Assembly (NCBI GenBank): GCA_019057385.1
Contig: JAHQJS010000007.1
Location: 192,001-256,000, forward strand
Direction: 5' to 3'
DNA from: Candidatus Borrarchaeum weybense
GTDB lineage: Archaea > Asgardarchaeota > Sifarchaeia > Borrarchaeales > Borrarchaeaceae
Length of the DNA stretch: 64,000 nucleotides
Within the stretch, counting starts at the first letter, position 1. Every line of letters begins with the position of its first letter. This document shows, in pieces, positions 18,633 to 37,490 of this stretch. The notes below the pieces were generated by a model. It was not told the DNA's origin and did not search any database. It worked only from the letters and a program-made list of their open reading frames with translations. Made by a program: the position numbers and the translations under genes.

Positions 18633-18635
18633 TAC

Positions 18636-21579: not shown

Positions 21580-21858
21580 ATGAGTGTAAGAATTATGCAG
21601 GTCGAAAGTGATCCTTGGGAAAAGCTAGATCGACTTCAAGAACTACCAACATTGTTAACTGATACGTTAACCAATACGATGAGTTTTATTTTTCGTATAG
21701 GCTGGATGGTCGGTGGTTTTGTCTTTGCAATTGGCTTAATATGTTACATGTCAGGGATTGATGAACGTAATGGCAAGAAAATGATCTTCGGCGGCTTTCT
21801 TTTGTTTATGCTATTTCTCTATTTAGATACTGGTGTTTGGATAACTCTGTTTGGATGA
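21580..21858 (+). CDS. Small two-TM protein, VirB2/TrbC/CedA1-like pilin candidate
   Basis: Amphipathic N-terminal helix plus a Gly-rich TM hairpin (IGWMVGGFVFAIGLICY-SGIDERNGKK-MIFGGFLLF); TTTTATATA box about 25 nt upstream. Confidence 0.5.
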   Translation: MSVRIMQVESDPWEKLDRLQELPTLLTDTLTNTMSFIFRIGWMVGGFVFAIGLICYMSGIDERNGKKMIFGGFLLFMLFLYLDTGVWITLFG

Positions 21859-21986
21859 AAATTGAAAATTAGATTGATTTTGTAGAGATAAACATCAAAA
21901 CCTGCTATTTTAATTTCTATAATTTATTATGAGAATATATCAGTTTTTTGAATGTCCATAAAAGACTAAATTTGCTTTGTCTCATA

Positions 21987-22032
21987 GTGACATCCTCCCC
22001 AGCCTTTCGGAAGGGGACTTCCCGCCGCATAA
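21987..22032 (-). mobile_element. Minimal IS200/IS605 end remnant (PATE-like palindrome)
   Basis: Minus strand reads TTTAA-CTTATGCGGCGGGAAGTCCCCTTCCGAAAGGCTGGGGAGGATGTCAC. It shares CCCTTCCGAAAGG with the IS left end near 2126 and ends in TCAC like the right end at 3885. Confidence 0.7.
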
Positions 22033-22263
22033 GTTAAAATTCAAAATTTTGTATGTCAGTGAGTTTCATATCAGTTCAAAATACATTCACTTAACTCTCT
22101 GCGAATTTAGTTCATCACATCCAATGAACTATTTGTTCAATCAAGTAGATATTCTTTATTAAAAATACTTATAAGATCAAAAGAACATCTATAAAAAATA
22201 TGGATTTATCTTATCATTAAACATTTTCCACCTTTTCATAATATGTCTCCTTGGTGGTGAAAG

Positions 22264-23280
22264 ATGAGCGAATACAGCCTTCAAACATGTAATGAATGTA
22301 AAGGTAATATAGTGCTAAATAGAGGGCTCTATGTATGTGAAAAATGTGGTCTGGTGGCTGAAACCCACTATGTTCCTCAAGACTACATTATCTCAGTGTT
22401 TACTGACGAAAAAGAAATAGCAAAACAATATGTGAGTCCTGGTGAGAGAATTGACATTGTTGATGGAATGGGTAGTTATATCGGAAATTATAATGAAAAA
22501 AACAGTCGAGATCATAAGGGGAAACATCTTTCAAAAGAGAAAGAACTCTATTTCAGAAAGTTAAACCGAATTTACAATTTTAGAGCGCGAATACGTCATA
22601 AAGAATCTCAATACAGAGTATTAAAATCATTGAATAGAGCTGTAACTCTTCTTCATCTTTCGGATAAAATAAAACAGAGAGCAGCATATATTTATCGTAC
22701 GAGTCTTAAGCAGGTTAGCCAGGATGAAATTTTAACGCACCCTGTTTTAATGGTCGCTGCTCTTTTCATAGCAATTCGAGAACGAAGAGCACCTGTCACG
22801 TTACAGGAAGTAATAAAAACGTTTGGACAACTAGGTCATAGGATCCCACCAAGAAAAGTCATCCGTGCAATTGAACTTCTAAAGAAATCTCCAGGAATTG
22901 AACTTGTACAAAGAAAAAGCGAAGATTACATCCCCAGACTAGTCAGTAAAGTCCTTAAGCACCCTGAGGTTATATTGAGACTTAAGAGAAGATTTTGGAC
23001 ATCATTTGAGTATCAAACACTTATCATGAAGGCAGCAAATACACTCTTAGAAATAGTAACTACTGAGCAACGCGGCGGTAGACATCCCTACATATTTGCA
23101 ACCTCAGTACTTTATGGAGCCGATTTATTAATTGCTAAACAGTTTGAACGGCGATCAGTCCTCACACAGAAATTGTTGGCAAAAATAGCGAATGTCGCTG
23201 AATATAGCATCCGCGATCATTACTGCACGTTGTTGAAAAAATACGTTAAGGGAGAACAAAAACCAAAAATGTTCGTTTAA
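22264..23280 (+). CDS. tfb: Transcription initiation factor IIB (TFB) paralog, divergent
   Basis: Zn ribbon CNEC..CEKCGLV, two cyclin-like repeats (AALFIAIRERRAPVTLQE; GRHP..A), terminal HTH TQKLLAKIANVAEYSIR; GGTGA RBS. Confidence 0.85.
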   Translation: MSEYSLQTCNECKGNIVLNRGLYVCEKCGLVAETHYVPQDYIISVFTDEKEIAKQYVSPGERIDIVDGMGSYIGNYNEKNSRDHKGKHLSKEKELYFRKLNRIYNFRARIRHKESQYRVLKSLNRAVTLLHLSDKIKQRAAYIYRTSLKQVSQDEILTHPVLMVAALFIAIRERRAPVTLQEVIKTFGQLGHRIPPRKVIRAIELLKKSPGIELVQRKSEDYIPRLVSKVLKHPEVILRLKRRFWTSFEYQTLIMKAANTLLEIVTTEQRGGRHPYIFATSVLYGADLLIAKQFERRSVLTQKLLAKIANVAEYSIRDHYCTLLKKYVKGEQKPKMFV

Positions 23281-23326
23281 TTTTTTTAAATTTTTCATAG
23301 GTATTGATGATTAATAGTTACTGGAT

Positions 23327-24034
23327 TTACCAAATTAGGATTTTTAGGAGGCTTTGGGTTAGTAAAAAAATGATAAAGAAGATCATTGCAGATAGAATGA
23401 GCATGGACCAAGAAGATTCCCCATCAGTGAATTCTGTGAGTTGGTAAGCAGTAAATATTCCAATGAAGAAAAAACCTACAAAAGCAGGCCAAAAACTTAG
23501 TGGATTAAAAGCCAGATTATTAGTAAGCTCTGAGACATTTTGTTGCCGAAGTAGGAATAGCATTGAAAAGAGAGGTGTAAGAGCGGCTATGTAACCCATC
23601 ACTAATGAAGTTCCTAATGATAAGATTTTGGTTTTAAGGTTTTTTGCTCTCAAGAAATGATTACGCTTTTTAATCAAGTTATTATTTTCCTCTAAGGCTC
23701 TAACCATAGAAAGTAGAACTTTGCCAGCCTCTATAGAATCTTTTTCTAGAAATTTACAGGTGAGCTGTAATAGATATCGACTGTTAAGATTATTGAGAGA
23801 TAAAGCAAGATCTTTCAAGATTTGTTTTAGGGGTAAAGCCCCAACAAATAACTGACGAACTGCTATCATAAAATGTGGTTTTAAAAACCCGTTATATTTA
23901 CTTAAAGCATAGGTAAACGCCTGTTCTGGGCAGATACCAAGTTTCAACTCATCAGCAAAAAAGCTTAGAAAACAAGCAATTTCACTCAATTCTTCATCTG
24001 ACTGTTGTAATACTATAGTTGACTGTTGTTTCAT
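23327..24034 (-). CDS. Type IV pilus platform membrane protein (TadC/GspF-like)
   Basis: ELKLGICPEQAF soluble domain followed by 3 TM helices; overlaps the upstream gene; downstream of the pilus ATPase. Confidence 0.7.
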   Translation of the reverse strand: MKQQSTIVLQQSDEELSEIACFLSFFADELKLGICPEQAFTYALSKYNGFLKPHFMIAVRQLFVGALPLKQILKDLALSLNNLNSRYLLQLTCKFLEKDSIEAGKVLLSMVRALEENNNLIKKRNHFLRAKNLKTKILSLGTSLVMGYIAALTPLFSMLFLLRQQNVSELTNNLAFNPLSFWPAFVGFFFIGIFTAYQLTEFTDGESSWSMLILSAMIFFIIFLLTQSLLKILIW

Positions 24035-24852
24035 CCGACCAGCTCAATTCTGTTACTTAAGACCTTATTCTTAATGATATACAATAGGCAAATGTGTAAA
24101 GGGATAATGAACAAGATGAAAGGAGAACTAGCAAACCCGTTGATGGATAAAAAGATGCCTAAAAAGATTGGAAGAAAAGTGGTTATTCCGATAGTTAAGG
24201 TTAAGCGGCTGTCTAATTCAATAGTGAAGCGATCGTAGGCATTACGCACCTCTGATTGAGTTGAATCTTTCATCAATTCAATGGTCGTTTCTAAATCATT
24301 AATCGCGAATAAACTAGATAGATGTTTTCGAAGCGTAATGGAAGGCTGTTTCTTAGCGTAATCTAATAAAAGCGTTTCTGGATCTTCGTTGTTGTTAACC
24401 TGAAAGAGTATTTTTTCGAAATCTTTTGAAACTTGTGGGAAATCACTTTTAGCAACGAAATATATCGCATCGAACGTTGACCCAGCTAATAACGCTAATA
24501 ACAGAGTATTCAAGATCAAGTCAGCATATTTCTCAATGTTTAGTCTTTCATGAGCATATCTTAGAGGAAGAAAACGCATTAATAATCCGTGAATAATATA
24601 TGCGAGAAGTAAAGCAACTGATGAAAAAAGCAGTGGAGAAAGGTCTAAAATAAGTGAAAAACTGGTAATTATTAGGAAAATAATGGTTGCGAAGGCTTTT
24701 GATCCAGCTGAAATATCCTCTGGAGTGAGATTTAACTCCTCATAATAACGACATGGCATTAGCAAAGCAGTGGGACAAAGTTTTTTTCCTATAAATTTGA
24801 AAGGTTGGATGGAAAGTGCTTTGCATATATTCATAGGCAGATTTGAAAACAA
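24031..24852 (-). CDS. Type IV pilus platform membrane protein (TadB/TadC-like)
   Basis: 2 TM + soluble (AIYFVAKSDFPQVSKDF...PETLL..YA..QPS) + 2 TM topology; in an operon with the ATPase. Confidence 0.7.
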   Translation of the reverse strand: MFSNLPMNICKALSIQPFKFIGKKLCPTALLMPCRYYEELNLTPEDISAGSKAFATIIFLIITSFSLILDLSPLLFSSVALLLAYIIHGLLMRFLPLRYAHERLNIEKYADLILNTLLLALLAGSTFDAIYFVAKSDFPQVSKDFEKILFQVNNNEDPETLLLDYAKKQPSITLRKHLSSLFAINDLETTIELMKDSTQSEVRNAYDRFTIELDSRLTLTIGITTFLPIFLGIFLSINGFASSPFILFIIPLHICLLYIIKNKVLSNRIELVG

Positions 24853-24866
24853 TTTGCAAACCTCAG

Positions 24867-26510
24867 CTATTCTTTAATCTGGTTAACAACATATTTGTAG
24901 AGAGAAGACCAGTCTATTTCGTTATAATGCATTCTATGTCTGAGTTTTTCAGTGTGTAGCCCATGGAAGATTTGTACATTGAGATAAGGGTCAAATAATT
25001 GGTTCTGAACCAGATAATTTAGTAGTTTTATGTATGTAGACATTTCTTCAATGAATTCTTCTAACGTTAACCCTTCAACCATTCTGATAGATTTCATGGT
25101 GGGGACGTCATATTGTTCTGTTAATGTTTTTATTAGCTGCTTATCAAGATCAAAGACATCGAATAACTGTATAGAATTAACTTTCAGATCGATTTCCAGC
25201 GGTATATCGGTTTTTTCAAATGGTTTTTCGACCTCACTTACTCGCCTTACCTTACGGATAAGTTTTTGATGGTAATAAGCCCGCATAAAGACGATGAGGT
25301 CTAAAGTTAATAGATTAATGGGAGCAATACCATGATGTTCTACCCAGCGGACAATCAGATTTTCAGGCGACGATGCGTGGCAGGTTTGAATTAAGTGTAG
25401 ACCTGCTGTAAGTGCATGAAATACTGCTTGAGAATGTTCCTGGGTTTGAATTTCCCCTAAGAAAACGTAATCAGGCGATCGATGTAATAATTTAACAATC
25501 TCTTTACTTTTGCTTCGTGAAGCATTCTCGCCTTCAAAGGGTATTACCTGTAGCCGTACTTGATGTTTATCGTAAGTATGTTGGGGGACGCTTTCGATGA
25601 CATCTTCGATGGTTATTTTTCGCCACTCAGGAGGAGTGATCAGATCCAGTGCATTAACTAGTGTGGTTTTACCCGAATTAGGTTCCCCAATGACCGTAAT
25701 ATTACAGCGTCGTAGCATAGCAAAATACAGGTAAGCGGCGATTTCCACAGGTAAAGTGCCATTCGCTACCAATTCTGGCAAAGTAAAGGCTTTACGCTTT
25801 AGTTTACGCACATCTAAATGCAAGCCATCGACAGCAAGAGGAGCGATGTCCATTGAAGTGCGAACATGAAAATTGTCAGTGATCAATTCTGTTTTGATAG
25901 AAGGATTACTTTCGTCCAGTAACAGACCGCTTTCATAGCGTAACCTTGTTTTTATACGTTCTAAATCAGCTTCAGATAAAATAACATTAGTCTTACAACG
26001 TCCCCAGGTGCGATGGTCTAAATAGAGCTGGGTGTTAGGACAATCTAGATAAAACTCTTCTATATGTTCATCCATAAGAAAAGGGGCAACCTTAAAGATA
26101 CCCGTTAGTTTATAGCAGGCTAGATCTATTAATTCATCTAAATCTTTCATTGATGCAAATTCAGGGTAATGTTTGTAAATATGCTCTTTAATTAGTGTCT
26201 TCCTCGTATTGAATAACTCTTGTAGGCTATAGAATCGAGGATCCAGAGGTTTGTTTTGAGTATCATTATCAAAGATCATACTTCCTGAAAGATGTTTCGC
26301 AATTGATTCAACGATTTCACCAAAAGGTGAAGTGTCTACTAGACTGTTATAGGCGTATAGTGCTTCGTTGGTATATTTTCCTGCACGCCTATATATTTTA
26401 ATATGATAAGGACCTATCTTGTACTGTTCAATTACTTTTGAGAATTCATCCATTTCCGAAAGATGAGAATGGGTCGAATCTTCATTAAGTTTGCATCTGT
26501 TCTTCTGCAA
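24867..26510 (-). CDS. Type II/IV secretion / pilus assembly ATPase (TadA/VirB11/CpaF family)
   Basis: PFLMDEHIEE, Walker A GEPNSGKTT, Asp box IEDVIE, Walker B PDYVFLGEIQ, His box TCHA. Confidence 0.9.
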   Translation of the reverse strand: MQKNRCKLNEDSTHSHLSEMDEFSKVIEQYKIGPYHIKIYRRAGKYTNEALYAYNSLVDTSPFGEIVESIAKHLSGSMIFDNDTQNKPLDPRFYSLQELFNTRKTLIKEHIYKHYPEFASMKDLDELIDLACYKLTGIFKVAPFLMDEHIEEFYLDCPNTQLYLDHRTWGRCKTNVILSEADLERIKTRLRYESGLLLDESNPSIKTELITDNFHVRTSMDIAPLAVDGLHLDVRKLKRKAFTLPELVANGTLPVEIAAYLYFAMLRRCNITVIGEPNSGKTTLVNALDLITPPEWRKITIEDVIESVPQHTYDKHQVRLQVIPFEGENASRSKSKEIVKLLHRSPDYVFLGEIQTQEHSQAVFHALTAGLHLIQTCHASSPENLIVRWVEHHGIAPINLLTLDLIVFMRAYYHQKLIRKVRRVSEVEKPFEKTDIPLEIDLKVNSIQLFDVFDLDKQLIKTLTEQYDVPTMKSIRMVEGLTLEEFIEEMSTYIKLLNYLVQNQLFDPYLNVQIFHGLHTEKLRHRMHYNEIDWSSLYKYVVNQIKE

Positions 26511-26549
26511 AACACTTCACCATGCTTATATGAGCTAAACGGTTTGACC

Positions 26550-29480
26550 TTACAAATCTAAAGTAATGTCATCAAACAATTTTCGTTTCCCAATAACAGT
26601 TAAAATTAAGCCAATGCAACTCACTGCGCTGATTCGAACGCCTAAAGAAACCGTAGCTAGATTAAGACCTTTTACGACTGTGAGATTATACTCTAGTTGT
26701 GAGGTTTGGTAACCCGATTTTTCGACAGTGACAGTCAATAGGTATTCACCTGGAGTTAACTCTGAAGTATCTAGCACTGCTTTATAGATGCCTGGTTCGA
26801 CTTCTTGACATTCGAGTGTATAATTGGTGTTCAATGTGATAGTAACATGGGCTTGCTCGATCGGGGCACCTTGGTCATCGTTAATTGTCACAATAATTTC
26901 TTTTTTAGTATTTGAGTTGAGTTGGATGTTATTTTCCAAGTTAACTGTCACTAGTAATGATGCTGTTTCAGTTGATGAGCCATTTCCCCCTCCGTTGTCG
27001 TCATTTCCGCTACTTCCATTGCTGCCGCCATCTCCATCTCTCGGGTTGTCAGTGTCTTTGGTTTCAAGTGAGATATTAGTCCCTATATATGCATCGGCGA
27101 TGGTTATCCCATAGCACAGCCCCGAACTGCCACCCTGAGGGGAGTTGGCATCTTCAGTAAAACTGGCGTGATACCAGTAGGTTTCCTGTGCGCCGATTAA
27201 GGCGTTGGACATCCCCAGAGTATCGCTTGAGGTGGCCACCATCTGTCTGGAGGCCGCATTCACCAAGTCCGCCCGGTTTTGTAACTCAACATCACTAAGG
27301 TAGTTGGCCAGTTTCTGCAGCGCATAACTGCTACCGTAGGCCGGTCGTAGGGCGTTGAGTTCCACTGAGGTGGCGAATGCTCCTTTGGTCTTGAAATTGT
27401 GGTCTCCCAGCCGTGAACTACCGGTGAAGGGAACGTTCCAGGCGTATTGCCAGGTTATCAGCCACTCGGCGGTCAGGTTTGCTTTGGTCAGGTAGAGGGT
27501 ATTATCGGTCAGTTCGTAAAAGCGAAGTAGGCCCTTGAGCATATATTCAGCAGTTTTAGAATCGATGATATGCTTTTTGTAGCCGTAACTAAAGTCGTAG
27601 CGCCCGGTATCCACCCCAAAGAAGCGGGCCTTATCTACAAATTCGGTGATGTAATGATTCATGGCCAGCATCGCAGCGTCCGAATAGGTGGTATTGCCGG
27701 TTAGCGTAGCTAATTCCATCAGGCTCAAGGCAACAGTTACGCCGCCGGCTCCTGCGATATCGTTGCAACTGGAACTGATGCCGTTGGTCCAGGTGTTGCC
27801 AAACGTCCCGTTAGCAAACTGCTTGACCACAAATATGTTGATAGCTGCTTCCACATATGCTAGCCAGTCGGGGTGGCTATCACCATACTGTTCTGCCACT
27901 AGATAGCATTGCAGCAGGTTGTATAGTACCTCTCCGCTTTTGGAGGTATGTACGTCGCCGCCGTGATCTCGTGCGTTAGCATACGAGGTATTGGTCTCCA
28001 GGTAGTAATCGGGTAATAGCCAGCCGTACTCACTCAGCGTAACGGCCGAGGGGTTACGGCTCAGGTCAATGAATTCATCGATTATCTGGTTGGCAGTAAC
28101 AATCATGGAAGTGTTCCCTGTCTGATAGCCATAATAAAGCAACGCATATGCCAGGGCGTGTTGTTGCCCCAGTTGACCGCCTATGGAGCCGCTGCTTCCG
28201 CCTATGAATTCCACGGGGGTTCCATCGTTGAAAAAGCCCGCTAAGAACAAGTATTCGTTATCAGTATCATTTTTATGATAAAAGGTGCGGTAGGCGAGTT
28301 CGGCTTTGAGTTGTAGGACATCTTGCATGCTTAACGTGGGATTGGTCGCCGAATAATTACCGTTAATCCAAGCCCACCCCAGTTGTACCGGTTCGATGAA
28401 CCCGTAATTCGGGGTAGTTGTCATACCCAGATAGAGCCGGTAGGTTTTGTTGAGAGTGGTAGTGGCATCGACGGTCAGGGAGTTCTTGTTGAAGGCCCAC
28501 TCATACTGGTCACGGCAACCTGGATTATCCTGATTTATTTGCTGGTTTATATGTTTAGTATAGGTATATCCTTCTCGTTGTGAGCCACCACTGGTCCAAC
28601 CACCTAAATAGTTGATGAGGTCGAAATGATCATCATGCCCTTGATATCCCAGTGAGGAGTTACCAGTATGCTCCTGTCCATCATACACATAAGTAGGAGC
28701 GGTCAGTAAGCCACACACAAAATCATCGTATTCCCAGATAACTGCCGGTACGCTAAGGCGTTCTTGCTCCACGATGAGATACTGGGACTGGTTGCTTAAA
28801 TCAGACATGGGGAAATCAGGTGTTACCTGCCGCTCTGCGGTATTCAAGTCGTATAAATTGCCGTTATAAAAGCAGCCGGGCATCATCAAGGTGTCAGCTT
28901 TACGTGGGGTAATTGCTCCGGGGTAAGTGATTGATAAATTGAATGGTAGTAGCACTGCTTCTTCCACCGAATTGTTCAAATGTTCCCAGTGCCGTTCGAT
29001 CTCCACATAATCCCACCCGTCCCGGAGGGTGTAATAATCGGTGACCTGCCACAAATGGCCGTTAGCGTCTGTGATGGTGACACATTCCTGATAAAATTCT
29101 TCCCAACTGACATCCACCTGTTTAGGATAGATTTCTCTGATGGTGTACTTCGTAACGGGCGATTGCGAGGTATCTGGGGCTATCGAAACTTGGAAATGAC
29201 CCATGGTGGCAATTTCAGTCCAGTCATTCCCATCCCACACGAAGAAGTAGGGTAAATAGGTGATTTGTTGTCCCGGGGGATTCTCCAGCCGTTCCTCAGT
29301 CATGAAACTGATGCGGATCCGCCCATTATCGATGGTAGGATCCATAAATCCATCACCGTTATAATCGGTTGTCCCATCAAAGGAGATGTCGGCCTTGGCC
29401 TGCGGACTATAAAAGGGTAAACCGAGTAATAACATCCCTATGAGGAACAAAACACTATATTTTGCAGAATGAGGCACCAT
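26550..29480 (-). CDS. Large secreted, membrane-anchored protein; probable beta-sandwich + (alpha/alpha)6 glycoside-hydrolase-like domain, Gly/Ser/Asn linker, Ig-like domain
   Basis: Signal peptide ending QAKA; repeated helical motifs (ALLYYGYQTGN, LMELATLTGN..Y, LLRFYELTDN.LYL..A...AEWL..WQ); linker DGDGGSNGSSGNDDNGGGNGSS; PGIYKA..PGEY..VEKSGY Ig-like domain; C-terminal TM. Confidence 0.7.
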   Translation of the reverse strand: MVPHSAKYSVLFLIGMLLLGLPFYSPQAKADISFDGTTDYNGDGFMDPTIDNGRIRISFMTEERLENPPGQQITYLPYFFVWDGNDWTEIATMGHFQVSIAPDTSQSPVTKYTIREIYPKQVDVSWEEFYQECVTITDANGHLWQVTDYYTLRDGWDYVEIERHWEHLNNSVEEAVLLPFNLSITYPGAITPRKADTLMMPGCFYNGNLYDLNTAERQVTPDFPMSDLSNQSQYLIVEQERLSVPAVIWEYDDFVCGLLTAPTYVYDGQEHTGNSSLGYQGHDDHFDLINYLGGWTSGGSQREGYTYTKHINQQINQDNPGCRDQYEWAFNKNSLTVDATTTLNKTYRLYLGMTTTPNYGFIEPVQLGWAWINGNYSATNPTLSMQDVLQLKAELAYRTFYHKNDTDNEYLFLAGFFNDGTPVEFIGGSSGSIGGQLGQQHALAYALLYYGYQTGNTSMIVTANQIIDEFIDLSRNPSAVTLSEYGWLLPDYYLETNTSYANARDHGGDVHTSKSGEVLYNLLQCYLVAEQYGDSHPDWLAYVEAAINIFVVKQFANGTFGNTWTNGISSSCNDIAGAGGVTVALSLMELATLTGNTTYSDAAMLAMNHYITEFVDKARFFGVDTGRYDFSYGYKKHIIDSKTAEYMLKGLLRFYELTDNTLYLTKANLTAEWLITWQYAWNVPFTGSSRLGDHNFKTKGAFATSVELNALRPAYGSSYALQKLANYLSDVELQNRADLVNAASRQMVATSSDTLGMSNALIGAQETYWYHASFTEDANSPQGGSSGLCYGITIADAYIGTNISLETKDTDNPRDGDGGSNGSSGNDDNGGGNGSSTETASLLVTVNLENNIQLNSNTKKEIIVTINDDQGAPIEQAHVTITLNTNYTLECQEVEPGIYKAVLDTSELTPGEYLLTVTVEKSGYQTSQLEYNLTVVKGLNLATVSLGVRISAVSCIGLILTVIGKRKLFDDITLDL

Positions 29481-30235
29481 AATCCCCGTAAATCTTTGAA
29501 TTATGCATTACAGTTAGCATTCTCTGTCTTCCAGCGACCTATATAAGTCCCCCTAAAACTCTAACTAGTCTAACTTGCCGTATGAAAGTAAAGTGATGAG
29601 AGCCAAAATAGAAAATCTAGTATATAGAAATGAATAACTTTGAAGAAATTCATTATAGTTACGAGAAAATTAAGAATACTCATATTGCATAACCGACAAA
29701 ATGTATGCTGTTCTCAAAATCGGTGACATGTTTTTTCATACAAAATACTTTTCTAAAAGTCTTATAGTCTGCCTCTCGTGAACTTAAAGAAACTTAAATC
29801 AGAATTCTTGATAAAATTAACAATAATCGCATAAAAAGAATTGTTTCACTTACACAGCACTCCCACTGTTAGTTTAAATCTAAGCTATCGCAGTATAAGA
29901 TAAATAAAAATCACTTGTATCTTATCGAAAAGTAAAAGCGTCTGCTATTTGATAATTGTGTTGTCCTTATATAGAGCCATTAAAATAAAGAGATGTAACC
30001 ATACGTTAAATGTGATAGTAGAGTGGAATAGATCGTCGATATAGAGTTGACGGTGTTGCATACTTAAAATATGATATACTCTAACTGTCAGAACAAACAC
30101 GTGGATAAGGGGGCTGTAATAGCCTTAAGAACAGGAGTAATACTTAAAGAAAAACTCAAATAAGGATATGCCGACTCAGATCTTATAAAAATCTATTGTC
30201 AAGAATAAGAAACGTTATTTAGAAGGAAAGAAAGA
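29481..30235. other. 755-bp AT-rich intergenic region upstream of cdc6; candidate replication origin or divergent regulatory region
   Basis: Longest non-coding gap in the window, adjacent to orc1/cdc6. Only loose ORB-like motifs (CACGTGGATAAGGGGG near 30098; CCCCC..ACTCTAACT near 29549-29566). Confidence 0.35.
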
Positions 30236-31435
30236 ATGTTACTATCCGATATCTTCGAAGAGGAATTGAGAAGTCCAACAGTATTTAGGGACGAATCTAA
30301 ATTAAACGAATCATATATGCCATCTTCTTTACCTCATAGAACTTCTGAGCTCCGAGAGTTGATTCGCCTATTTTTAGGTTTGATGAAAAATCCTGGTGAA
30401 ATGAGTCAACGAGTTACTATTAGTGGAAGTATCGGTACTGGAAAAACGGCGCTTTCTAAATGTTTTGGAAAAATCTTGGAAGAGTATGAAACAACACATA
30501 ACAAGAATTTACATTATGTTCATATTAATTGTCGACGTAAAAAATCACGCTTCTTAATACTCAGGCAAGTTGTATTTCATTTCAATCCTACAGTGCCCCA
30601 TAGAGGTTATTCACCAGAAGAACTACTTTACATGCTTGATTGCTTATTGGAGTCACAAAATGCTCATTTAGTTCTAGTACTCGATGAACTTGATTTTATT
30701 TTAGGTAGAAATGACAGATCTCTTCTCTATGATCTAACACGATGGACTGATGAGCAATTAAATGGCGTTCAACGTGTATCCCTGATACTCATTGTAAGGG
30801 ACAGGGCTTATCTGAAGAAGTTAGATGCAAGTACACTGAGTTCACTTCAAAATAATCATATCTATCTAGCGCCTTATTCTGCTTCTCAACTTGTGGATAT
30901 TTTACAGGAGCGGGCAACTGAAGCATTGTTTGACTACGCAGTCAATTCTGAGGTTCTCAATCTCATTGCCGATATTGCCAGTGAACGAGGTGATGCTCGT
31001 TTTGCTCTGGAACTCTTATGGCGCGCCGGAAAATATGCTGACCGTGATAGAGTCCCCTCTATTCTTCCAGAGCATGCTCGACTGGCCAAAGCTGATGTTC
31101 ATCCGCGCGTTAGAAAAGATTTCTTTCATGAATTGTCACCACATCAGCAATTAGTATTATTGGCTATTATCCGCCAATTGAAAAAACACGAAGCCGCCTA
31201 TACGACCACAGGAGATGTTGAAATCAACTACAATGTTATCTGCGAAGAATATGATGAAACTCCACGAAAACATACCCAACTGTGGGAATACATTAAAGAA
31301 CTTGAACAATTGGGCATTATCACAACTAAGATCTCCAGCAAAGGTATACGTGGTAAAACCACTTTAATTGGATTGCCAGATGCACCACTGTCCCTACTCG
31401 AAAAAGAACTTCAAAATAATCTAAAAGAGTATTAA
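30236..31435 (+). CDS. cdc6: Orc1/Cdc6 replication initiator family AAA+ protein
   Basis: LPHR, Walker A GSIGTGKT, VHINC, Walker B VLDELD, PYSASQL.DIL..R, GDARFAL, wHTH ending GIRGKTTLI. Confidence 0.95.
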   Translation: MLLSDIFEEELRSPTVFRDESKLNESYMPSSLPHRTSELRELIRLFLGLMKNPGEMSQRVTISGSIGTGKTALSKCFGKILEEYETTHNKNLHYVHINCRRKKSRFLILRQVVFHFNPTVPHRGYSPEELLYMLDCLLESQNAHLVLVLDELDFILGRNDRSLLYDLTRWTDEQLNGVQRVSLILIVRDRAYLKKLDASTLSSLQNNHIYLAPYSASQLVDILQERATEALFDYAVNSEVLNLIADIASERGDARFALELLWRAGKYADRDRVPSILPEHARLAKADVHPRVRKDFFHELSPHQQLVLLAIIRQLKKHEAAYTTTGDVEINYNVICEEYDETPRKHTQLWEYIKELEQLGIITTKISSKGIRGKTTLIGLPDAPLSLLEKELQNNLKEY

Positions 31436-31456
31436 AAATAAGGGAGTATATAAGAA

Positions 31457-31783
31457 ATGACGCTTGATTTGTCAAATATTCTTACTCAACAAGAACCATT
31501 TCCACCTATAGAAGAAGTGCTTTCTTCAAAAGGAAAAATTAAAATTCTAAAGATTTTAACCCTTTACGATGAATTAAACATCTCTGAGATCGTACGAAAA
31601 GCGCAACTTAACCATGCCACTGTTACTCAACATCTTGATTACTTTAAATCCATCGCAATTGTAGAAGAAAAAGCATTTGGACGAATAAAAATCTATCAGT
31701 TAACAGATGACATAAAAGTCAGAGTCATTCGTGAATTAATAGAATTCTGGGAACGATCAGAGTCCTCATCCGCATTAAAATGA
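31457..31783 (+). CDS. ArsR-like winged-helix protein downstream of cdc6
   Basis: SSKGKIKILKIL..ELNISEIVRKAQLNHATVTQHL...EKAFGRIKIY. Confidence 0.85.
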   Translation: MTLDLSNILTQQEPFPPIEEVLSSKGKIKILKILTLYDELNISEIVRKAQLNHATVTQHLDYFKSIAIVEEKAFGRIKIYQLTDDIKVRVIRELIEFWERSESSSALK

Positions 31784-31998
31784 TAATGCTGTAATTGATG
31801 AACTAAAAGCGTTCCAGCATTAGAAATCAATTATTTTTTCCTTTGAGTGAACAGAAGTTTGTGTATGAAGTGCTATTGCCTTCAAAGAAAATTGTGGTGC
31901 TTAAATAGTAGACAATATACTTTTTAATGAATAATAATGAGTTCGTGGACTTTACAGCCGAAAATTGATAAAAATCTTATTTTGATGAGGCGGGAATT

Positions 31999-33312
31999 GT
32001 GAGAGTCATAATTAAAGAAGAGAATATCGATTTAGAGACTCATAGTTTTTTACGAGAATGTGGCATCACGGCTGTAGTTTTACTCAAATTTGATCTTGCA
32101 ATGGGACCATATATCGCTTTTAAAAGCGTGTATGAGCAAAATGTAAATAGTATAAGACCCCTAGAAGATCCTGAATATCTTGCACAATTTTATGTTGGCA
32201 TTTCAGGAACTGAAATGGATACTCTCGAAAAAAATGAAGAACGAATCGTCATTGCTCGCCAAAAATACGTTATAGACGCCACACATGTTACTGATGTTCT
32301 ACTTCTCTGCATAGACAATGAAATATCAACTTCTTCGGCTATTACCTTTGCTCAAGAACTAATAACTAATTCGAATGCTGAGCCTCATCACCTTGAAGAG
32401 TTACTTGTACAACTTAAAGAAACGGCACCGGATTTGGAATTCCAATTGAAAATTCACCCTCAGAGGATACCTTTAGAACTACAAAGCTTGAATAGAGTTC
32501 AAAAATTGAATAAATTAACAAAATTTAAAAAATTTGTAACCAAGCCTTTGGATTTATTTCAAAAAATAGAAACTAATGAAATTGAACTCATGTTCACTCA
32601 ATTACGTAAATCTATGTTCTTCATTCGAATACCTTTTGAGGATCTAGATATCACTCGCTTTTTTGAAACTTTTCTCACCCAAATTTCAATAGATAAGAAT
32701 ACTGTCTTTTCTATTGAAATGATCCAAATTAATGCGAGATTCTATTTAGTTATGACATTAGTTTTACCACCCAATCAAAGAAATTTTATAGAACGTTTAG
32801 CTGGCAGTTTGAATATGAGAGGCTTTTCCATCTCACTTGTAAAAGAAAAAGATTTGAAAAAACATTGGATTGCACCCTTAGGGATCACGAACGGTACATC
32901 AATTCGAATCTCGCGAAAACACAAAAACTATATTCAAGTGCTTAATTCACCACAGCGTTTGATCTCCTTGTATAAAAGCAAGACAATACTACCACTCACC
33001 TTAACAACACTTACACAAATTCAAGAATCATTGTGTACTACTATCCTCTGTAGAGGTTTAAAGAAGAATAAGGCTTGTGTTGAAATACTATTTGCAAAAG
33101 TACACTCGTCTAAAGCAGAGATCGATCAATTTGAGCTTCCTAAAGAACTTTCTAGGTATTTTTTTAAAGTAAAAGGTAGACGAGCATTAACAGACACGAT
33201 AAAGGCCCTATTATTAAGAGATTGTTCGAAAGGTATTAAACTCTCATTAAAAGAATTATATGAATTCTTTCTAGGAATAGATTTAGTAAATCTTGAAAAA
33301 CTTGTTAAATAA
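31999..33312 (+). CDS. Longin/uDENN-like N-terminal domain fused to an uncharacterised alpha/beta domain resembling the N-terminal part of the neighbouring VirB4-like ATPase
   Basis: ECGITAVVLLKFDLAMGPYIAF... is clearly paralogous to the 17874-18632 protein; GAGG RBS before GTG. Confidence 0.6.
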   Translation: MRVIIKEENIDLETHSFLRECGITAVVLLKFDLAMGPYIAFKSVYEQNVNSIRPLEDPEYLAQFYVGISGTEMDTLEKNEERIVIARQKYVIDATHVTDVLLLCIDNEISTSSAITFAQELITNSNAEPHHLEELLVQLKETAPDLEFQLKIHPQRIPLELQSLNRVQKLNKLTKFKKFVTKPLDLFQKIETNEIELMFTQLRKSMFFIRIPFEDLDITRFFETFLTQISIDKNTVFSIEMIQINARFYLVMTLVLPPNQRNFIERLAGSLNMRGFSISLVKEKDLKKHWIAPLGITNGTSIRISRKHKNYIQVLNSPQRLISLYKSKTILPLTLTTLTQIQESLCTTILCRGLKKNKACVEILFAKVHSSKAEIDQFELPKELSRYFFKVKGRRALTDTIKALLLRDCSKGIKLSLKELYEFFLGIDLVNLEKLVK

Positions 33313-33344
33313 TACAAATTCCAAAAAATATTGCTACCAGGTTA

Positions 33345-33602
33345 TCAAGAAAGAATGATTCTTTCTACTTGTTTTTCTTTAGATATTTCGTTAAACAAAC
33401 TAGAGAAGTGTTCCTCGGCAGTTTTTAGTTCCTCAAATTCATAAAAATCATTAATTTTTGTTTCTTCAGAAATAAAAAGAAAGTATTTATCACCACAGCC
33501 TCGAATTAAACACAAGAATGTGTCTTCATCAAAGCAGAAGCTTTGAATTAATTCCCATCTGCACCCGCTAGAGACTTTTTTTACCAATGTTTCTACTACC
33601 AT
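33345..33602 (-). CDS. Small hypothetical protein translationally coupled to the VirB4/HerA-like ATPase
   Basis: TAATG stop/start overlap at 33602 with GGAGG upstream. Confidence 0.65.
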   Translation of the reverse strand: MVVETLVKKVSSGCRWELIQSFCFDEDTFLCLIRGCGDKYFLFISEETKINDFYEFEELKTAEEHFSSLFNEISKEKQVERIILS

Positions 33603-36445
33603 TAAACATTCCCTCCTTCATTCATGGCAGTTTTATGTGTTGATCTATCACTTTTCATGTATGATTTTATGCTAAGATCGTCCCAATACTCCATAGATTC
33701 CTCTGCCGTGCACTCCGAAAAGATGGTTTTTTCCGCTTTTGCTAGAATTCCTTCATTTTCTTTTGTGCAAGAAGTCACTTTCGCGTACAAATTTGGATAA
33801 TTCAATAGGTTATGTGCGCGGATTACTTCCTCATCGACATTGCTACTCTTAAAGTCGTTTGTACGTATACGTGTTGGATGCTTCAATGTAGGTGAAAAAA
33901 TCAGACATTCCTGTGATCTTATACGCTTCAGATAGTTAACTTGTCTCTCGTCTAAGTTCATGTATTTTTGAAGTAATTCTGCATCTTTTGTCAATTGAAA
34001 TGAAATGATAGTGTAACTATTGGCTAGACTGTTCTCAGCGAAAAGAGGACGTGTCCCTACGAAGACGAAACCAACTCCATATGCTCGTAATAATATGCTA
34101 AGATCTTCAGTTGGTGTTGCATCAATGCTCGTCTGTTTTCTATATAACTCAGGAACAAGAAACTGACATTCCTCTACCACAATTAAGTTGCGTAACTGCT
34201 GCTGAAGCCCTCGCTTAATGGAATTAGCCCCATATAAGCGCACTAAAATATTCATTAAAAACCTAATATCATCCTTTGGAACGCGTTGAGACTGAAGGAA
34301 ACCTAAATCAATAATAACCTTCTTTTTAATGAGTTCATCAAAAGATATGTTCGATCTACTTACATCAAAGATTTCTTTTAGTACACCTCGAATAAACTTG
34401 TTTAGACGATTTTGCAATGCAGTAACTGTCTTCTCCAAATATGAAAACTTGTTCTTGTATTGTATCGCATAGTTATCAAGCGCTTTCAGAAAGCCTTTAA
34501 ATCCGTTGAGGCGTGCTGTTGTATCTGCAATATATTCATCAAGAACGTCTTTAAGCACGCGCTCCATTTGTACTGAAAGATCAATATCCTGTTGCAACAT
34601 AGTAGAATAAACTTCACGTATGAGGGAAAATACTCTGTCTGCATGTTCCTCAGGAGAAAATCCGCAAGGATCGAAAATATTTATCTGCAATGGTGCATAT
34701 TCTGAACCTGGAGCAAATATAAGGATATCATTAAGTATCTCACGTGGAAATAGAGGAAGCAATTGTGTGTATTCAGATTTATAATCAAAAATAATCCAGT
34801 CAATCAGTGGGAATTCACTTGAGAGCAATAGAACAATATTTTTTGTAAGACACGTTTTTCCACTTCCGATCAACCCAATAACTGTTGTATTGCGTCTTAA
34901 ATCTTCAATTTTAACTTTTAAAGGCTGTAAAATCTTATCTCTAGAAACAACATGCCCAATTTCTATTCCTTCAACTAGGTCAGTCACTTCAAGAGGTATC
35001 TCAAACTCTGGAATAAAATTGCTGTCTATTCCACGTACTGGTCTCTCTGGTAGATGTGTAAACGGCGATAAGTGAAATATATTCATCTTGGTTTCATTTT
35101 CTATCGATAATTTCATTCCAGCACGTTTATATGCGCGTCTAAGTTTTCTACCTTCTAAAATAGACGTTTTAATACCATAATGAACTCCTGAATAAATAGT
35201 ATTGAGTGAATTTTCAATGTTTAATGTCACACGCCTACATATTTCTTCATCTTTTGCAGAGACTAAGACATAAGTCGATACTTTAGTAAATCCAGGTTGC
35301 ATTTCATTTAGATATTCTAAGGATTCCTGCTTTTTCTGGCTTTTAAAAAAGTTCACGGGCTCATTAATTAAAGCAATGTCGTTTGTATCCGTTATTAGTT
35401 GTTCTAATTCTTTTTCACGAATATTAAAACTCTTGAAATTCGTCACGAAATTTATTTCTGCTTGTAAACTAAGACAATGCCTGATAAATTGGTCGTGTTG
35501 TGTTATTACCCTGTGTGGTTTTTTCTCAGGTTGACCTTCAACAGCAATAATAGAAACATGACGAATATCATGAGATGATATTATTTGGGAGATTCCCTGA
35601 ACATAAAGCACCGATCTGTCTTGTCCGTGTCTTAAGAATTTAGGTAGTACTGTAAAAGCTGATAATTCTTTTTCAGACACGATTTCACTTTCAACCTCAA
35701 ATGAAAGCGATTCAAGACTCCCTTTCATGCGATTAAGAGCGGATTGGGCTGCTTCTATTGCTTTGTTTTCCCTTCGACCTGTTCCAAAAACATATCGTCT
35801 TATCTTGACGGTTCCTCCTTCTTTTATAGAAATCTCATGTGCACCTTGTTTACACTTCTTTAGGTATGCTGAGATATCTTCATTTTCATATTTTTGAAAA
35901 TTTGTGCTTTTTGAAACATCTTGGAATATAGAGGGACGTTGTGCATAGTTCATAACTTCCCTTGACAGACTTTTGATTTCTAACGCTTGAATCACGAAAT
36001 ATCTGTCTGGAAACATGAAGAAAGCAAAAATACTAAATAGCCACATAAATTTACGAAAAAAATTCGGCAATGGAAGCTTTCGCTGGAAAATGATTCTATT
36101 TGAACCAAGTGAATGTAATTCGTACTCTGAAAAGATACGAACACTAAGAACACTGATAAGAGCAAAAATGACGAAAGTAATAACGAATGGATAATCGAGA
36201 ATTTTGGATCCTAAACTTAATGAAGTAAAAGGAAATTGAGCAAGTACATTCTTGAAAACGAAATAGTCTAGAAAATAGATAGCAAAACTTGAACAAAAAG
36301 TGAAAAAAAGCATATGAATAATGATCGCTTCCATTTTCTCCTTAAACAAACCCTCTGAAAACCTTGAGTGTTTTAATACAACATATATAGAGAAAAAGAA
36401 GCAGGAAATTACTATAATGAACAAATGTACGATATTAATGAACAT
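33602..36445 (-). CDS. Membrane-anchored HerA/VirB4-like (DUF87) ATPase
   Basis: 3-4 N-terminal TMs; IEIGHV, RNTTVIGLIGSGKT (Walker A), IFDYKSEY, INIFDP, VIIDL, Walker B IVVEECQ, LRAYGVG. Confidence 0.85.
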   Translation of the reverse strand: MFINIVHLFIIVISCFFFSIYVVLKHSRFSEGLFKEKMEAIIIHMLFFTFCSSFAIYFLDYFVFKNVLAQFPFTSLSLGSKILDYPFVITFVIFALISVLSVRIFSEYELHSLGSNRIIFQRKLPLPNFFRKFMWLFSIFAFFMFPDRYFVIQALEIKSLSREVMNYAQRPSIFQDVSKSTNFQKYENEDISAYLKKCKQGAHEISIKEGGTVKIRRYVFGTGRRENKAIEAAQSALNRMKGSLESLSFEVESEIVSEKELSAFTVLPKFLRHGQDRSVLYVQGISQIISSHDIRHVSIIAVEGQPEKKPHRVITQHDQFIRHCLSLQAEINFVTNFKSFNIREKELEQLITDTNDIALINEPVNFFKSQKKQESLEYLNEMQPGFTKVSTYVLVSAKDEEICRRVTLNIENSLNTIYSGVHYGIKTSILEGRKLRRAYKRAGMKLSIENETKMNIFHLSPFTHLPERPVRGIDSNFIPEFEIPLEVTDLVEGIEIGHVVSRDKILQPLKVKIEDLRRNTTVIGLIGSGKTCLTKNIVLLLSSEFPLIDWIIFDYKSEYTQLLPLFPREILNDILIFAPGSEYAPLQINIFDPCGFSPEEHADRVFSLIREVYSTMLQQDIDLSVQMERVLKDVLDEYIADTTARLNGFKGFLKALDNYAIQYKNKFSYLEKTVTALQNRLNKFIRGVLKEIFDVSRSNISFDELIKKKVIIDLGFLQSQRVPKDDIRFLMNILVRLYGANSIKRGLQQQLRNLIVVEECQFLVPELYRKQTSIDATPTEDLSILLRAYGVGFVFVGTRPLFAENSLANSYTIISFQLTKDAELLQKYMNLDERQVNYLKRIRSQECLIFSPTLKHPTRIRTNDFKSSNVDEEVIRAHNLLNYPNLYAKVTSCTKENEGILAKAEKTIFSECTAEESMEYWDDLSIKSYMKSDRSTHKTAMNEGGNV

Positions 36446-36844
36446 TTAACAAGCCTCAAGATCTTCAACTAAAGAAAAAAGAGTAAAAGATTTCAAAAAG
36501 TAAAGACATTTGCATACTTCATCAAAAAAACATTTAATCATGGCCAATGTCCGCCTGAATGTAATAATTAACTCTCATAAAATATTACTATGTTTTAGCG
36601 TTTCAAATACTGAATTTTAATGAATTATAAAAGATCAACGACTTTTTTATAAATAAGGATTATTTTAAAAAGAAAATGAGTTATCTAAAGCTCAAATTAA
36701 GTTTATGGAGTCCTCAGTGAAAGTATTAGCTACCAAAAAATTTGCAGAATTATCTAAATCATATTGAACGAGAATTTCGTTAAAAATCGAGGGGCTTAAT
36801 AATATACTCCAATTATCATCTTCAGTTAAAGTTGAGGACAAGAA

Positions 36845-37174
36845 ATGAGATATCTAAACGCAGTATTAGGATTAATCCTTCATGTCATAATTATAATTCT
36901 CGCTTATCTACCGTTATTTGTACGATGTCTCAATTTGGGGTTCCATGAAACCTATCCTGTACTTATCCTTTTTTGGCTTCTATCTCTCAATGAGTTATTG
37001 TTGGCTATAACTCCACCTTCAGTTTTAGTCTTGCCAGTATGCTCGTTTTCAATTAGTATGGTTATTGGCTTTTTTTTCACTCATATTTTTCCATGGGTTT
37101 ATCCTTTTCTTGTATTCGGATTCATTCTTTTTGTACTGGGACTTCTCCTTCAGTTTTTGATAACCTTAATTTGA
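36845..37174 (+). CDS. Small 4-TM membrane protein
   Basis: Almost entirely hydrophobic ORF with GAGG RBS; divergent from the ATPase and upstream of the pilin. Confidence 0.6.
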   Translation: MRYLNAVLGLILHVIIIILAYLPLFVRCLNLGFHETYPVLILFWLLSLNELLLAITPPSVLVLPVCSFSISMVIGFFFTHIFPWVYPFLVFGFILFVLGLLLQFLITLI

Positions 37175-37304
37175 TCTGAAAGAATTACAAAAGTCGTGAG
37201 GTTTTTATATCTACATGCATGTAGCTTGTAAAGATTTTACAAATAAGAAACCTCTATTATGGGAATTCTTAAGGAGACTAAATACATAGAGAAAGGTGTG
37301 TTAA

Positions 37305-37490
37305 ATGATAAAGAAGTTTTTTCAGAATAAACGAGGTTCTCCTTTGATTGAAGAGGTTATGTTAATCGGAATGGCCATTCTTATGTTTGCACTGGTAATC
37401 AGTTTGATATTTGATATCTTTAATTGGACTGGTGCATCAACCTCCGAACTCTATCAAGAACTGGCCAATCTTTGGAGTGAGTTTCGTTGA
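37305..37490 (+). CDS. Small type IV (Flp-like) pilin with class III signal peptide
   Basis: MIKKFFQNKRG/SPLIE: basic leader, G at -1, E at +5, then a hydrophobic helix; AGGTG RBS. Confidence 0.75.
   Translation: MIKKFFQNKRGSPLIEEVMLIGMAILMFALVISLIFDIFNWTGASTSELYQELANLWSEFR

Follow-up and report, generated by a model that had tools for sequence, protein, structure and literature searches.

A DDRE-like promoter element and a TFB-linked, probable Flp-like pilus module in a gene neighbourhood kept across Asgard archaea

We analysed a 64,000-nt stretch of DNA from Candidatus Borrarchaeum weybense, called the window below (G000:C7:192001-256000, on contig C7 of genome G000, a metagenome-assembled genome of 4.18 Mb in 8 contigs). 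The window holds a three-module neighbourhood that is kept across Asgard archaea, rather than a single operon. Its tight, operon-level core consists of a full-length paralogue of the transcription factor TFB (TFB-T) plus Tad/Flp-like filament genes; close by are an Orc1/Cdc6 paralogue with a small winged helix-turn-helix (wHTH) partner and a membrane-anchored ATPase of putative VirB4 type. Judged from sequence comparison, two things appear to be new here: an 18-nt element resembling the DDRE of Sulfolobus that precedes TFB-T across Asgard classes, and the ordered, phylum-wide TFB-pilus module itself. Together these features suggest, with a probability that we put slightly above even, an Orc1-2/TFB-controlled, damage-inducible pilus module, perhaps with VirB4-like DNA translocation.

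To our knowledge the network of Orc1-2, DDRE, TFB3, Ups and Ced has been described from Sulfolobales alone. The Ups pili of Sulfolobus serve cell-cell contact or aggregation, and for CedB, the VirB4-like ATPase of Ced, a role in moving DNA through the membrane has been proposed. The S. islandicus DDRE, AATAGTTTCRGWDTACTCWS, is bound by Orc1-2, is required for induction of upsA, upsE, tfb3 and cedA1, and lies 23-55 nt from the start codon (PMC6061795). No paper linking Orc1-2 or DDRE to Asgard archaea was found in the literature searched.

Open reading frames (ORFs) were checked by translation, families were assigned with Pfam and NCBIfam, structures were compared using AlphaFold and Foldseek, and language-model look-alikes were taken from Atlas. 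The comparison sample was 41 Asgard genomes from 18 families. The features of the window are as follows.

19362-21284, minus strand: Upf1-like SF1 helicase, a flanking gene (Pfam AAA_11/AAA_12, E 1e-41 to 1e-44)
21580-21858, plus strand: 92-aa protein with two transmembrane (TM) helices, candidate VirB2/TrbC-type pilin as a lead from Atlas look-alikes
22080-22097, plus strand: DDRE-like element AATACATTCACTTAACTC, 184 nt upstream of TFB-T
22264-23280, plus strand: TFB-T, a full-length divergent TFB paralogue (Zn ribbon plus TFIIB repeat; NCBIfam PRK00423, E 2.6e-23)
23327-24034, minus strand: putative TadC-like half of a split platform protein (its homologues come after the ATPase gene in other classes)
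24031-24852, minus strand: TadB-like half of the split platform protein, on the same basis; 4-nt overlap with the next gene
24867-26510, minus strand: FlaI/TadA/VirB11-family secretion ATPase (Pfam T2SSE 2.2e-18, 66.5 bits against a cut-off of 24.9)
26550-29480, minus strand: 976-aa secreted protein with a C-terminal TM anchor and Ig-like stalk (weak Invasin_D3 and CarboxypepD_reg matches)
30236-31435, plus strand: Orc1-2-type Orc1/Cdc6 paralogue (Pfam Cdc6_C and Cdc6_lid)
31457-31783, plus strand: 108-aa ArsR-like wHTH protein (Pfam HTH_5)
31999-33312, plus strand: 437-aa protein with a longin-like N-terminus (from translation; paralogues in the genus)
33345-33602, minus strand: 85-aa ORF whose start overlaps the ATPase stop codon by one base; no family match
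33602-36445, minus strand: 947-aa membrane-anchored VirB4-like ATPase (P-loop, N-terminal TM helices)
36845-37174, plus strand: 109-aa polytopic membrane protein (from translation; no family match)
37305-37490, plus strand: 61-aa Flp-like prepilin, KRG|SPLIEE (class III signal peptide)

The genes on which an earlier, sequence-only reading of this DNA was built all proved to be clean ORFs at these positions, and its inventory thus stands, except that it had left out the 976-aa surface protein and the 437-aa longin-like protein.

The clustering exceeds chance, since these families are found side by side again in other Asgard classes. The secretion ATPase, TFB-T and Cdc6 each have one clear orthologue in most of the 41 genomes, TFB-T occurring once per genome in 35 and the ATPase giving a match at E <= 1e-20 in 38 (mostly 35-48% identity). 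When loci from other families were fetched around the TadA-type ATPase, TFB-T was found no more than about 4 kb away in 16 of 20, and in about half of the 20 TFB-T and the ATPase gene are immediate neighbours on the same strand that abut or overlap (by 22 nt in L041). An operon of FlaI/TadA-type ATPase, TadB/C-type platform and small Flp-like prepilin begins with TFB-T in most Asgard classes; in the window TFB-T is convergent with the Tad operon. The Cdc6 and wHTH genes lie within 5-10 kb in families f1, f3, f5, f7, f10 and f15 and at 13 kb in f9. The co-localisation is therefore conserved well beyond the genus, as the sequence-only reading had asked of related genomes, but its picture of a locus built around cdc6 has to be given up, the tight core being TFB-T and the ATPase instead.

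A TFB-T profile scan of GTDB species genomes gave 80 loci, all Asgard save one mislabelled 2-kb contig. Across these mostly thorarchaeotal loci the ATPase is present in 72, the prepilin in 56, Cdc6 in 55 and the VirB4-like gene in 54. Fifty loci have full 10-kb flanks, and there the counts are 50, 44, 44 and 45, respectively, with all four genes present in 36. The Thorarchaeota share one order: wHTH and Cdc6 (reading Cdc6 to wHTH leftward, at -5 to -6 kb), then TFB-T, ATPase and prepilin (the latter two at +1.4 and +2.4 kb), then the VirB4-like gene (+6.5 kb). In family f14 (L145, G019:C50:8071-12485) TFB-T lies 2 kb from the Cdc6-wHTH pair, and this locus has no TadA-type ATPase and no detectable motif. 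The mislabelled contig (L063, JBNVCE010000141.1; 2.1 kb, labelled Thermoplasmatota) carries a Frey/Jord-type TFB-T with a DDRE-like site at -153 and is probably mis-binned.

The promoter element was found by comparing k-mers upstream of the cluster genes in 44 Thorarchaeota loci, where a single k-mer was conspicuous before both TFB-T and Cdc6. The sequence AWTASTTTCGGNNAYCTC, always in gene orientation, stands about 150 nt before TFB-T in 41-42 of the 44 loci and about 95 nt before the Cdc6 gene in 40 of them. At a threshold of at least 11 bits over 913 kb, 86 of 104 matches to a position weight matrix (PWM) fall at these two places before TFB-T or Cdc6. Outside Thorarchaeota the element is found again at -108 to -185 from TFB-T, in loci of Frey-, Jord-, f3-, f4-, f5- and Borr-type. 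Its form in Frey- and Jordarchaeia is AATACTTTCGGTT[AT]ACTC; in Baldrarchaeota it is found before the Cdc6 gene. Thorarchaeota and Freyarchaeia genomes have only 1-6 sites each, with further ones upstream of nre and DUF763 (two genera each), of uvrB and of a Rad51-like gene. The likeness to the Sulfolobus DDRE is close: the Jordarchaeia site agrees at 17 of the first 18 DDRE positions and the Thorarchaeota consensus at 14 of 18, with two N positions besides. For the window copy the agreement is likewise 14 of 18, the hexamer being ACATTC where the DDRE has ANTTTC.

The Borr/Sif-type loci carry a variant, A[AT]TAC[ACG]TTC[AG]CT..A[AC][CT]CTC, which forms a conserved block in seven upstream regions. 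The window copy, AATACATTCACTTAACTC, lies in such a block, placed and oriented like the AWTASTTTCGGNNAYCTC element of other Asgard classes, and a conserved TATA-like box follows about 60 nt downstream. A search of the window genome with this variant gave six matches against none in the control, of which only two are new since four had defined the pattern. One match is intragenic, one precedes a 50-aa Zn-ribbon ORF, and the others stand before the two copies of TFB-T and the two of radA (the latter at -59 and -69). The 50-aa ORF (motifs CPxCG...CxxCP) follows GATTACTTTCACCGATCTCTC and a TATA-like box at G000:C7:166125-166368, 26 kb before the window, and is possibly a further regulon member. 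Upstream of the VirB4-like gene of the window there is a partial site at 36707-36727 (minus strand, score 3.4), in a region that is uniformly conserved along its length.

The Cdc6 protein of the window is one of four paralogues in the genome. Against A. pernix ORC1 and S. solfataricus Orc1-1 the paralogue on contig C5 reaches 340 bits, and it is on that basis the canonical Orc1-1 initiator. The window protein scores far lower against these proteins (Sso Orc1-1, 151 bits; Ape ORC1, 138; Ape ORC2, 93), and its best match in the PDB is Pyrobaculum 1FNN (199 bits). Thermoproteales have been inferred to have lost Orc1-1 and to keep the Orc1-2 cluster alone (Raymann et al. 2014, PMC3914693), so that 1FNN should fall in the Orc1-2 cluster. 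The winged-helix residues of S. islandicus Orc1-2 are R353 in the recognition helix, T356, and R381 and R383 in the wing (PMC12490963); the window protein has R344, T347, R372 and K374 at the same offsets, the S. islandicus numbering being that of the paper's text rather than of an alignment. The winged-helix sequence PR(K)HTQ.W...G.RGK is kept in the orthologues of the window protein, whereas paralogues of Orc1-1 type read RRISD. By sequence comparison the window Cdc6 is not the canonical Orc1-1 and looks like an Orc1-2-type protein. The suggestion that this Cdc6 is non-canonical thus gained from both the far better Orc1-1 on C5 and a winged-helix signature that appears to fit Orc1-2. The wHTH gene follows the Cdc6 orthologue in 8 of 9 loci and, in the larger set, in 54 of 55.

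A replication origin at the window Cdc6 was considered and rejected: the upstream repeats are short chance pairs only, with no ORB-like repeats, and a mini-ORB pattern is not enriched (30 matches against 20 expected). The GC skew of the contig is noisy and tracks gene strand. An inverted pair of TACTTTTC at 29746 and 29934 was dropped for lack of conservation in G003. Just upstream of the cdc6 DDRE-like site, and often following a tRNA, about 40 Thorarchaeota loci have a conserved element of about 85 nt with a closing GGCGAG/CTCGCC stem and two GATGA boxes (L101:5748-5852, minus strand); its Rfam match, of C/D-box snoRNA-like type, is weak (E 0.19, below the gathering score).

The most serious competing explanation is inherited housekeeping synteny, in which an ordinary initiator Cdc6, a plain adhesion pilus and an unrelated VirB4-like ATPase sit in a region that has rearranged slowly since the Asgard ancestor. 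The neighbourhood also carries genes for S10, L3, L4, L23, L2, S17e, Lsm, TGT, Urm1 and a SPOUT methylase, and these ribosomal, Lsm, TGT, Urm1 and SPOUT genes share it about as often as does Cdc6. Order and orientation between the modules vary, Cdc6 is 25-105 kb away in families f18, f12 and f17, and proteins of the Orc1-2 cluster are the sole initiators in Thermoproteales. Synteny leaves unexplained, however, the shared 18-nt element before TFB-T, Cdc6 and repair genes. Moreover, a separate canonical Orc1-1 exists, no ORB-type repeats are found upstream of the window Cdc6, and the overlap or abutment of TFB-T with the ATPase gene is a linkage at operon level. We regard synteny as an unlikely account of the whole.

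The filament genes themselves were assigned as follows. TFB-T, of 338 aa, has a Zn ribbon, a linker and two cyclin folds and aligns over both folds of canonical TFB; it is full-length, as had been read from the sequence at the outset. The secretion ATPase matches the NCBIfam models of FlaI (8e-29), TadA-type (5.8e-25) and VirB11 (6.7e-18) ATPases. Neither the two platform halves nor their fused homologues match any Pfam family, T2SSF included. Fused platform-type forms of 480-510 aa exist in other Asgard classes, and Atlas places a fused homologue at 0.94 to Asgard T2SSF clusters, with 206-208 shared features. As 23327-24034 and 24031-24852 are homologous to genes that follow the ATPase elsewhere and the fused form is T2SSF-like, these genes probably encode a split TadB/TadC-type platform. 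No platform gene was found in the Thorarchaeota locus; elsewhere in those genomes the matches are marginal (E about 5e-4), with a query that also missed the known G040 copy.

The 61-aa protein is probably a minimal Flp-like prepilin because its sequence has a class III signal peptide with Glu at +5. Eleven prepilin orthologues from at least six families have in common the pattern [KR]G|[SG]PL[VI]EE, one hydrophobic helix, a short amphipathic tail and a GW motif. The prepilin directly adjoins the TadA-type ATPase in loci of Thor-, Frey-, Jord- and Baldr-type. The sequence-only reading saw no prepilin peptidase in the window, and the locus has none; an A24 peptidase (PF01478) is encoded on contig C8 (G000:C8:138144-138485), beside another FlaI-type ATPase. 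The 976-aa gene ends 39 nt before the ATPase gene and thus heads the Tad operon in the window. Its GC content is 0.43-0.44 as against 0.33-0.37 around it, its homologues are found within the genus only, and a sequence search of the protein against the PDB gave nothing useful. In Thorarchaeota, unrelated Ig-like surface proteins flank TFB-T, ATPase and prepilin at equivalent positions.

These genes might instead form a repurposed, non-pilus machine in which TFB, ATPase and platform act in a transcription-related or membrane-signalling process and the "pilin" is an accessory peptide. Makarova et al. (2016, PMC4858521) described an operon of ATPase, membrane protein and TFIIB and suggested a transcription-related role, and a 2026 census of type IV filaments (T4F) found components of this clade, 4D, in Asgard archaea (PMC13705601). 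The ATPase identity of 35-48% across the phylum is high by our own expectation for pilus genes, and the Thorarchaeota locus is without the platform gene. Against this, in many classes the operon includes a conserved prepilin with class III cleavage motif and Glu at +5, the genome does encode a prepilin peptidase, and TFB-T has two cyclin folds, unlike arCOG05559. A non-pilus machine is in our judgement quite improbable.

Both halves of the locus have copies elsewhere in the genome. The left half recurs on C3:110000-146000 at 70-86% amino-acid identity with inversions, the copy spanning the Arf GTPase, helicase, 92-aa protein (p92), TFB-T, TadCBA, 976-aa protein, Cdc6 and wHTH genes. The right-half families recur on C5:16000-54000, spread over about 37 kb: paralogues of the 437-aa protein (52%) and the VirB4-like ATPase (about 60%) stand together about 10 kb from the canonical Orc1-1, a 93% identical prepilin copy lies ~22 kb from the ATPase paralogue, and a copy of the 109-aa gene (52%) lies another 9 kb on. 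The same ATPase duplication is found in other members of the genus, so the duplication is genuine and contamination is excluded.

Such duplication of each half would suit an integrated conjugative or plasmid-like element with its own Cdc6 and VirB4-, VirB11- and VirB2-like transfer genes. Integrated elements of archaea typically carry a Cdc6, a VirB4-like and a VirB11-family ATPase, a two-TM pilin-like protein and a helicase. However, a tRNA gene is absent from the window, and no integrase was found among the proteins scanned in 18.6-41.5 kb. Orthologues exist in nearly all Asgard genomes, with identities to be expected of vertical descent and beside ribosomal operons, the same duplication is seen in other genus members, and the GC content is host-like except in the 976-aa gene. 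The probability of an integrated element is accordingly very small.

The VirB4-like ATPase has homologues in 32 of the 41 genomes; the homologues carry PF01935, and all those checked begin with TM helices. Among the NCBIfam models, CedD (1e-11) and antiphage HerA (4e-10) match it best, each falling far short of its cut-off; for CedD (NF053655) the protein reaches 44.1 bits where the curated cut-off is 600. A sequence search against the PDB gave nothing useful. In the AlphaFold model (pLDDT 72) the motor domain is roughly as close to one of several families as to another, with Z scores of 28.7 to DndH-C, 28.5 to VirB4 (4AG5), 27.1 to TrwB/VirD4 and 25.7 to Sso HerA, and Foldseek ranked full-length TrwK/VirB4 first (1e-20). 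When the N-domain (residues 170-480) was folded alone, at a middling model confidence (pLDDT 64), it matched only TrwK/VirB4, with 14 matches of E 4e-7 to 1e-4 and TMq 0.5-0.56, the next match having E 0.08. The TM helices, VirB4-type N-domain and motor of VirB4/HerA class point to a VirB4-like architecture in the models, with no HAS-barrel of the HerA kind.

The contrary assignment, a defence or repair HerA with an unrecognised effector, can draw on PADLOC HerA models (1e-10), on NCBIfam HerA_antiphage (4e-10) and on the motor-domain Z of 25.7 to Sso HerA, yet it has hardly any probability, for the N-domain matches VirB4 only and lacks a HAS barrel, the homologues checked have N-terminal TM helices, no Sir2, DUF4297, NurA or other effector stands alongside, and the ATPase is kept in 32 of 41 genomes. 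A reading of the locus as a defence system was likewise rejected, PADLOC giving only generic HerA and Upf1-like helicase domain matches. The view that this ATPase is of VirB4 type, rather than a HerA or defence ATPase, therefore survives on its modelled N-domain, its TM helices and the absence of a HAS-barrel and of effector context.

It is plausible that the ATPase is a Ced/Ted-like translocase, the support being its modelled architecture and its position within 4-8 kb of the pilus genes in two classes, as seen in Thorarchaeota and in this genus. BLAST clustering across families brought out no conserved polytopic or two-TM neighbour. One 83-aa two-TM ORF lies upstream of the ATPase in G032 and p92 lies 12 kb from it in the window; the two do not align. 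The 437-aa partner is kept near the two best-sampled of three ATPase paralogue groups in the genus, and no copy was found in the stretch fetched around the third (L023). Its N-terminus is 39% identical to the ORF at 17874-18632, beside an Arf-family GTPase (region 17874-19187), so that the same longin-like domain is used twice. Atlas gives the 437-aa protein a lead to NPR2. That it might be a copy of the ATPase N-domain was rejected, as BLASTP found no similarity (best E 0.63).

The 92-aa protein shows two hydrophobic helices in its sequence and matches neither Pfam (E <= 0.01) nor NCBIfam. Its named Atlas look-alikes, at 0.82-0.87, are TrbC, T4SS_pilin, DUF3852, DUF4134 and DUF2976, all of them pilin families of type IV secretion systems (T4SS). 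Weak homologues occur in seven families, without linkage to the VirB4-like gene. A VirB2-like pilin is for now a lead, as is a role of the VirB4-like ATPase and this two-TM protein in DNA transfer.

An Orc1-2/TFB-controlled pilus would work in the following way. Its first module would comprise the FlaI/TadA-family ATPase, the split TadB/TadC-type platform and the 61-aa prepilin, tied to the dedicated TFB-T; the second, the Orc1-2-type Cdc6 and its small wHTH partner; and the third, the membrane-anchored VirB4-type ATPase. DNA damage or a related stress would cause the Orc1-2-type protein to bind the 18-nt DDRE-like element, which is placed upstream of TFB-T, of its own cdc6 gene in some classes, and of the repair genes radA, uvrB and nre. 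TFB-T, once switched on, would drive the pilus genes, and the resulting short Flp-like filaments would serve cell-cell contact or aggregation, as do the Ups pili in Sulfolobus. In the weakest step the VirB4-like ATPase, possibly with the two-TM protein at 21580, might move DNA across the membrane in the manner of CedB. What the analysis shows is the identity of the genes, their conserved linkage and the motif with its targets; the binder of the motif, its inducibility, the function of the filament and DNA transfer are what we infer. Of the four refuting conditions that the sequence-only reading had set for itself, none told against it and three checks came out in its favour. That reading had spoken of a regulated cell-contact/DNA-transfer system; its regulatory half gains independent support because the DDRE-like element precedes a TFB paralogue, an Orc1-2-type gene and repair genes, and its other half, DNA transfer or competence, found no support.

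Several observations weigh against an Orc1-2-controlled pilus and DNA-transfer module. The assignment of the window Cdc6 to Orc1-2 is indirect, resting on best matches and a residue signature. The motif copy in the window is diverged (PWM 6.7, about the 98th percentile), and no clear copy was found before the Cdc6, Tad operon or prepilin genes of the window, nor, at >=11 bits, before the VirB4-like gene in the 44 Thorarchaeota loci. The Asgard element stands 60-185 nt from the start codon, as against 23-55 nt in Sulfolobus, and genome-wide enrichment of the motif is modest in 3 of the 5 genomes scanned. In two Thorarchaeota genera a site also precedes deoxyhypusine synthase (L135, G010:C52; L143, G030:C23), a target that makes a pure repair regulon ill-fitting. 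The counts from the 80 loci are not independent, as most are Thorarchaeota and hence kin. The VirB4-like gene shows no linkage to the pilus genes in most families, standing among housekeeping genes there, and neither the window nor the loci that were fetched showed a VirB6/CedA-like channel (no genome-wide search for one was made). Finally, since ribosomal and other housekeeping genes share the neighbourhood, the linkage, including the proximity of Cdc6, may be partly old housekeeping synteny.

The conserved neighbourhood carries a near match to the Sulfolobus damage-response motif, and the archaea most closely related to eukaryotes may therefore build damage-induced contact, and perhaps DNA-exchange, machinery. 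A bolder proposal, which we hold to be doubtful, is that an Orc1-2/DDRE circuit inherited from the Asgard-TACK ancestor switches on TFB, a Flp-like pilus and a VirB4-type translocase. Should the circuit operate as it does in Sulfolobus, the DNA-damage response of archaea would be far older than thought, and damage-induced contact, possibly with recombination-coupled DNA exchange, would become testable in the lineage nearest eukaryotes. A concrete 18-nt site and a short list of targets are at hand for experiments in existing Asgard cultures. The 2026 census had described Asgard type IV filament genes as scattered or remnant (PMC13705601), a view against which the ordered TFB-T/filament loci found across Asgard archaea speak.

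The SF1 helicase at 19362-21284 has a 70% identical copy on contig C3 and its linkage is confined to the genus; loci of other families held no clear homologue, one marginal match (E 0.004, L049) apart. It strongly matches the helicase part of Mokosh MkoA (PADLOC 5.6e-79) without the rest of MkoA, and is probably a generic Upf1-like helicase. The 85-aa ORF is kept in genomes G003 and G004, as is the 109-aa protein, which has a 52% identical paralogue on C5. Scans of the window for tRNA and Rfam families found nothing.

Next to the Sulfolobus network, the described system that comes closest is clade 4D of Thermoproteales, whose predicted operon likewise combines a TFIIB homologue with a secretion ATPase and a membrane protein of platform type (PMC4858521). 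Clade 4D is pilin-less, has a single-cyclin TFIIB (arCOG05559), is found in Pyrobaculum and Thermoproteus only and is linked to RPB8 (PMC4858521). The Asgard set differs in its prepilin, its two-cyclin TFB and its links to the Cdc6-wHTH pair and the DDRE-like element.

With Tad/Flp and archaeal Epd-like pili the Asgard genes share a TadA-family ATPase, separate putative TadB and TadC platform proteins and a mature pilin of ~50 aa; as in Tad/Flp pilins, cleavage at G|xxxxE with Glu at +5 is followed by a single hydrophobic helix. Unlike Tad/Flp systems, the Asgard proteins do not match Pfam Flp_Fap or T2SSF, the locus has no TadV-type peptidase, secretin or minor pilins, and a transcription factor gene lies inside the operon.

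The 947-aa ATPase resembles VirB4, CedB and TedB in its N-terminal membrane anchor, its predicted VirB4-type N-domain and its motor of VirB4/HerA class, and like CedB it is chromosomal and conserved. It differs in that no VirB6/CedA/TedA or VirB2/CedA1/TedC gene was found beside it, that its closest curated family is the VirD4-like CedD (44 bits against a cut-off of 600), and that in this genus it has a longin-like partner.

The damage network of Sulfolobales remains the nearest parallel. The Asgard element also precedes the repair genes radA, uvrB and nre, whereas the Sulfolobus targets are mainly ups, ced and tfb genes. The Asgard parts are physically clustered, TFB is co-operonic with the pilus ATPase, and the motif is further from the start codon. 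TFB3 of Sulfolobales is a truncated TFB lacking the cyclin core, whereas TFB-T is full length. UpsA and UpsB are pilins of Ig-domain type, a kind described among archaeal type IV pili, in contrast to the minimal Flp-like Asgard peptide with Glu at +5, and no CedA/VirB6-like or CedA1 orthologue was identified in the window or fetched loci (the genome was not searched for the channel). What the two have in common is an Orc1-2-type Cdc6, a TFB paralogue, a pilus ATPase of the FlaI family together with a pilin and a (here putative) platform, a membrane VirB4-like ATPase and, upstream of the TFB paralogue, a nearly identical element that reads AATAGTTTCRGWDTACTC in Sulfolobus, AATACTTTCGGTTTACTC in Jordarchaeia and AWTASTTTCGGNNAYCTC in Thorarchaeota.

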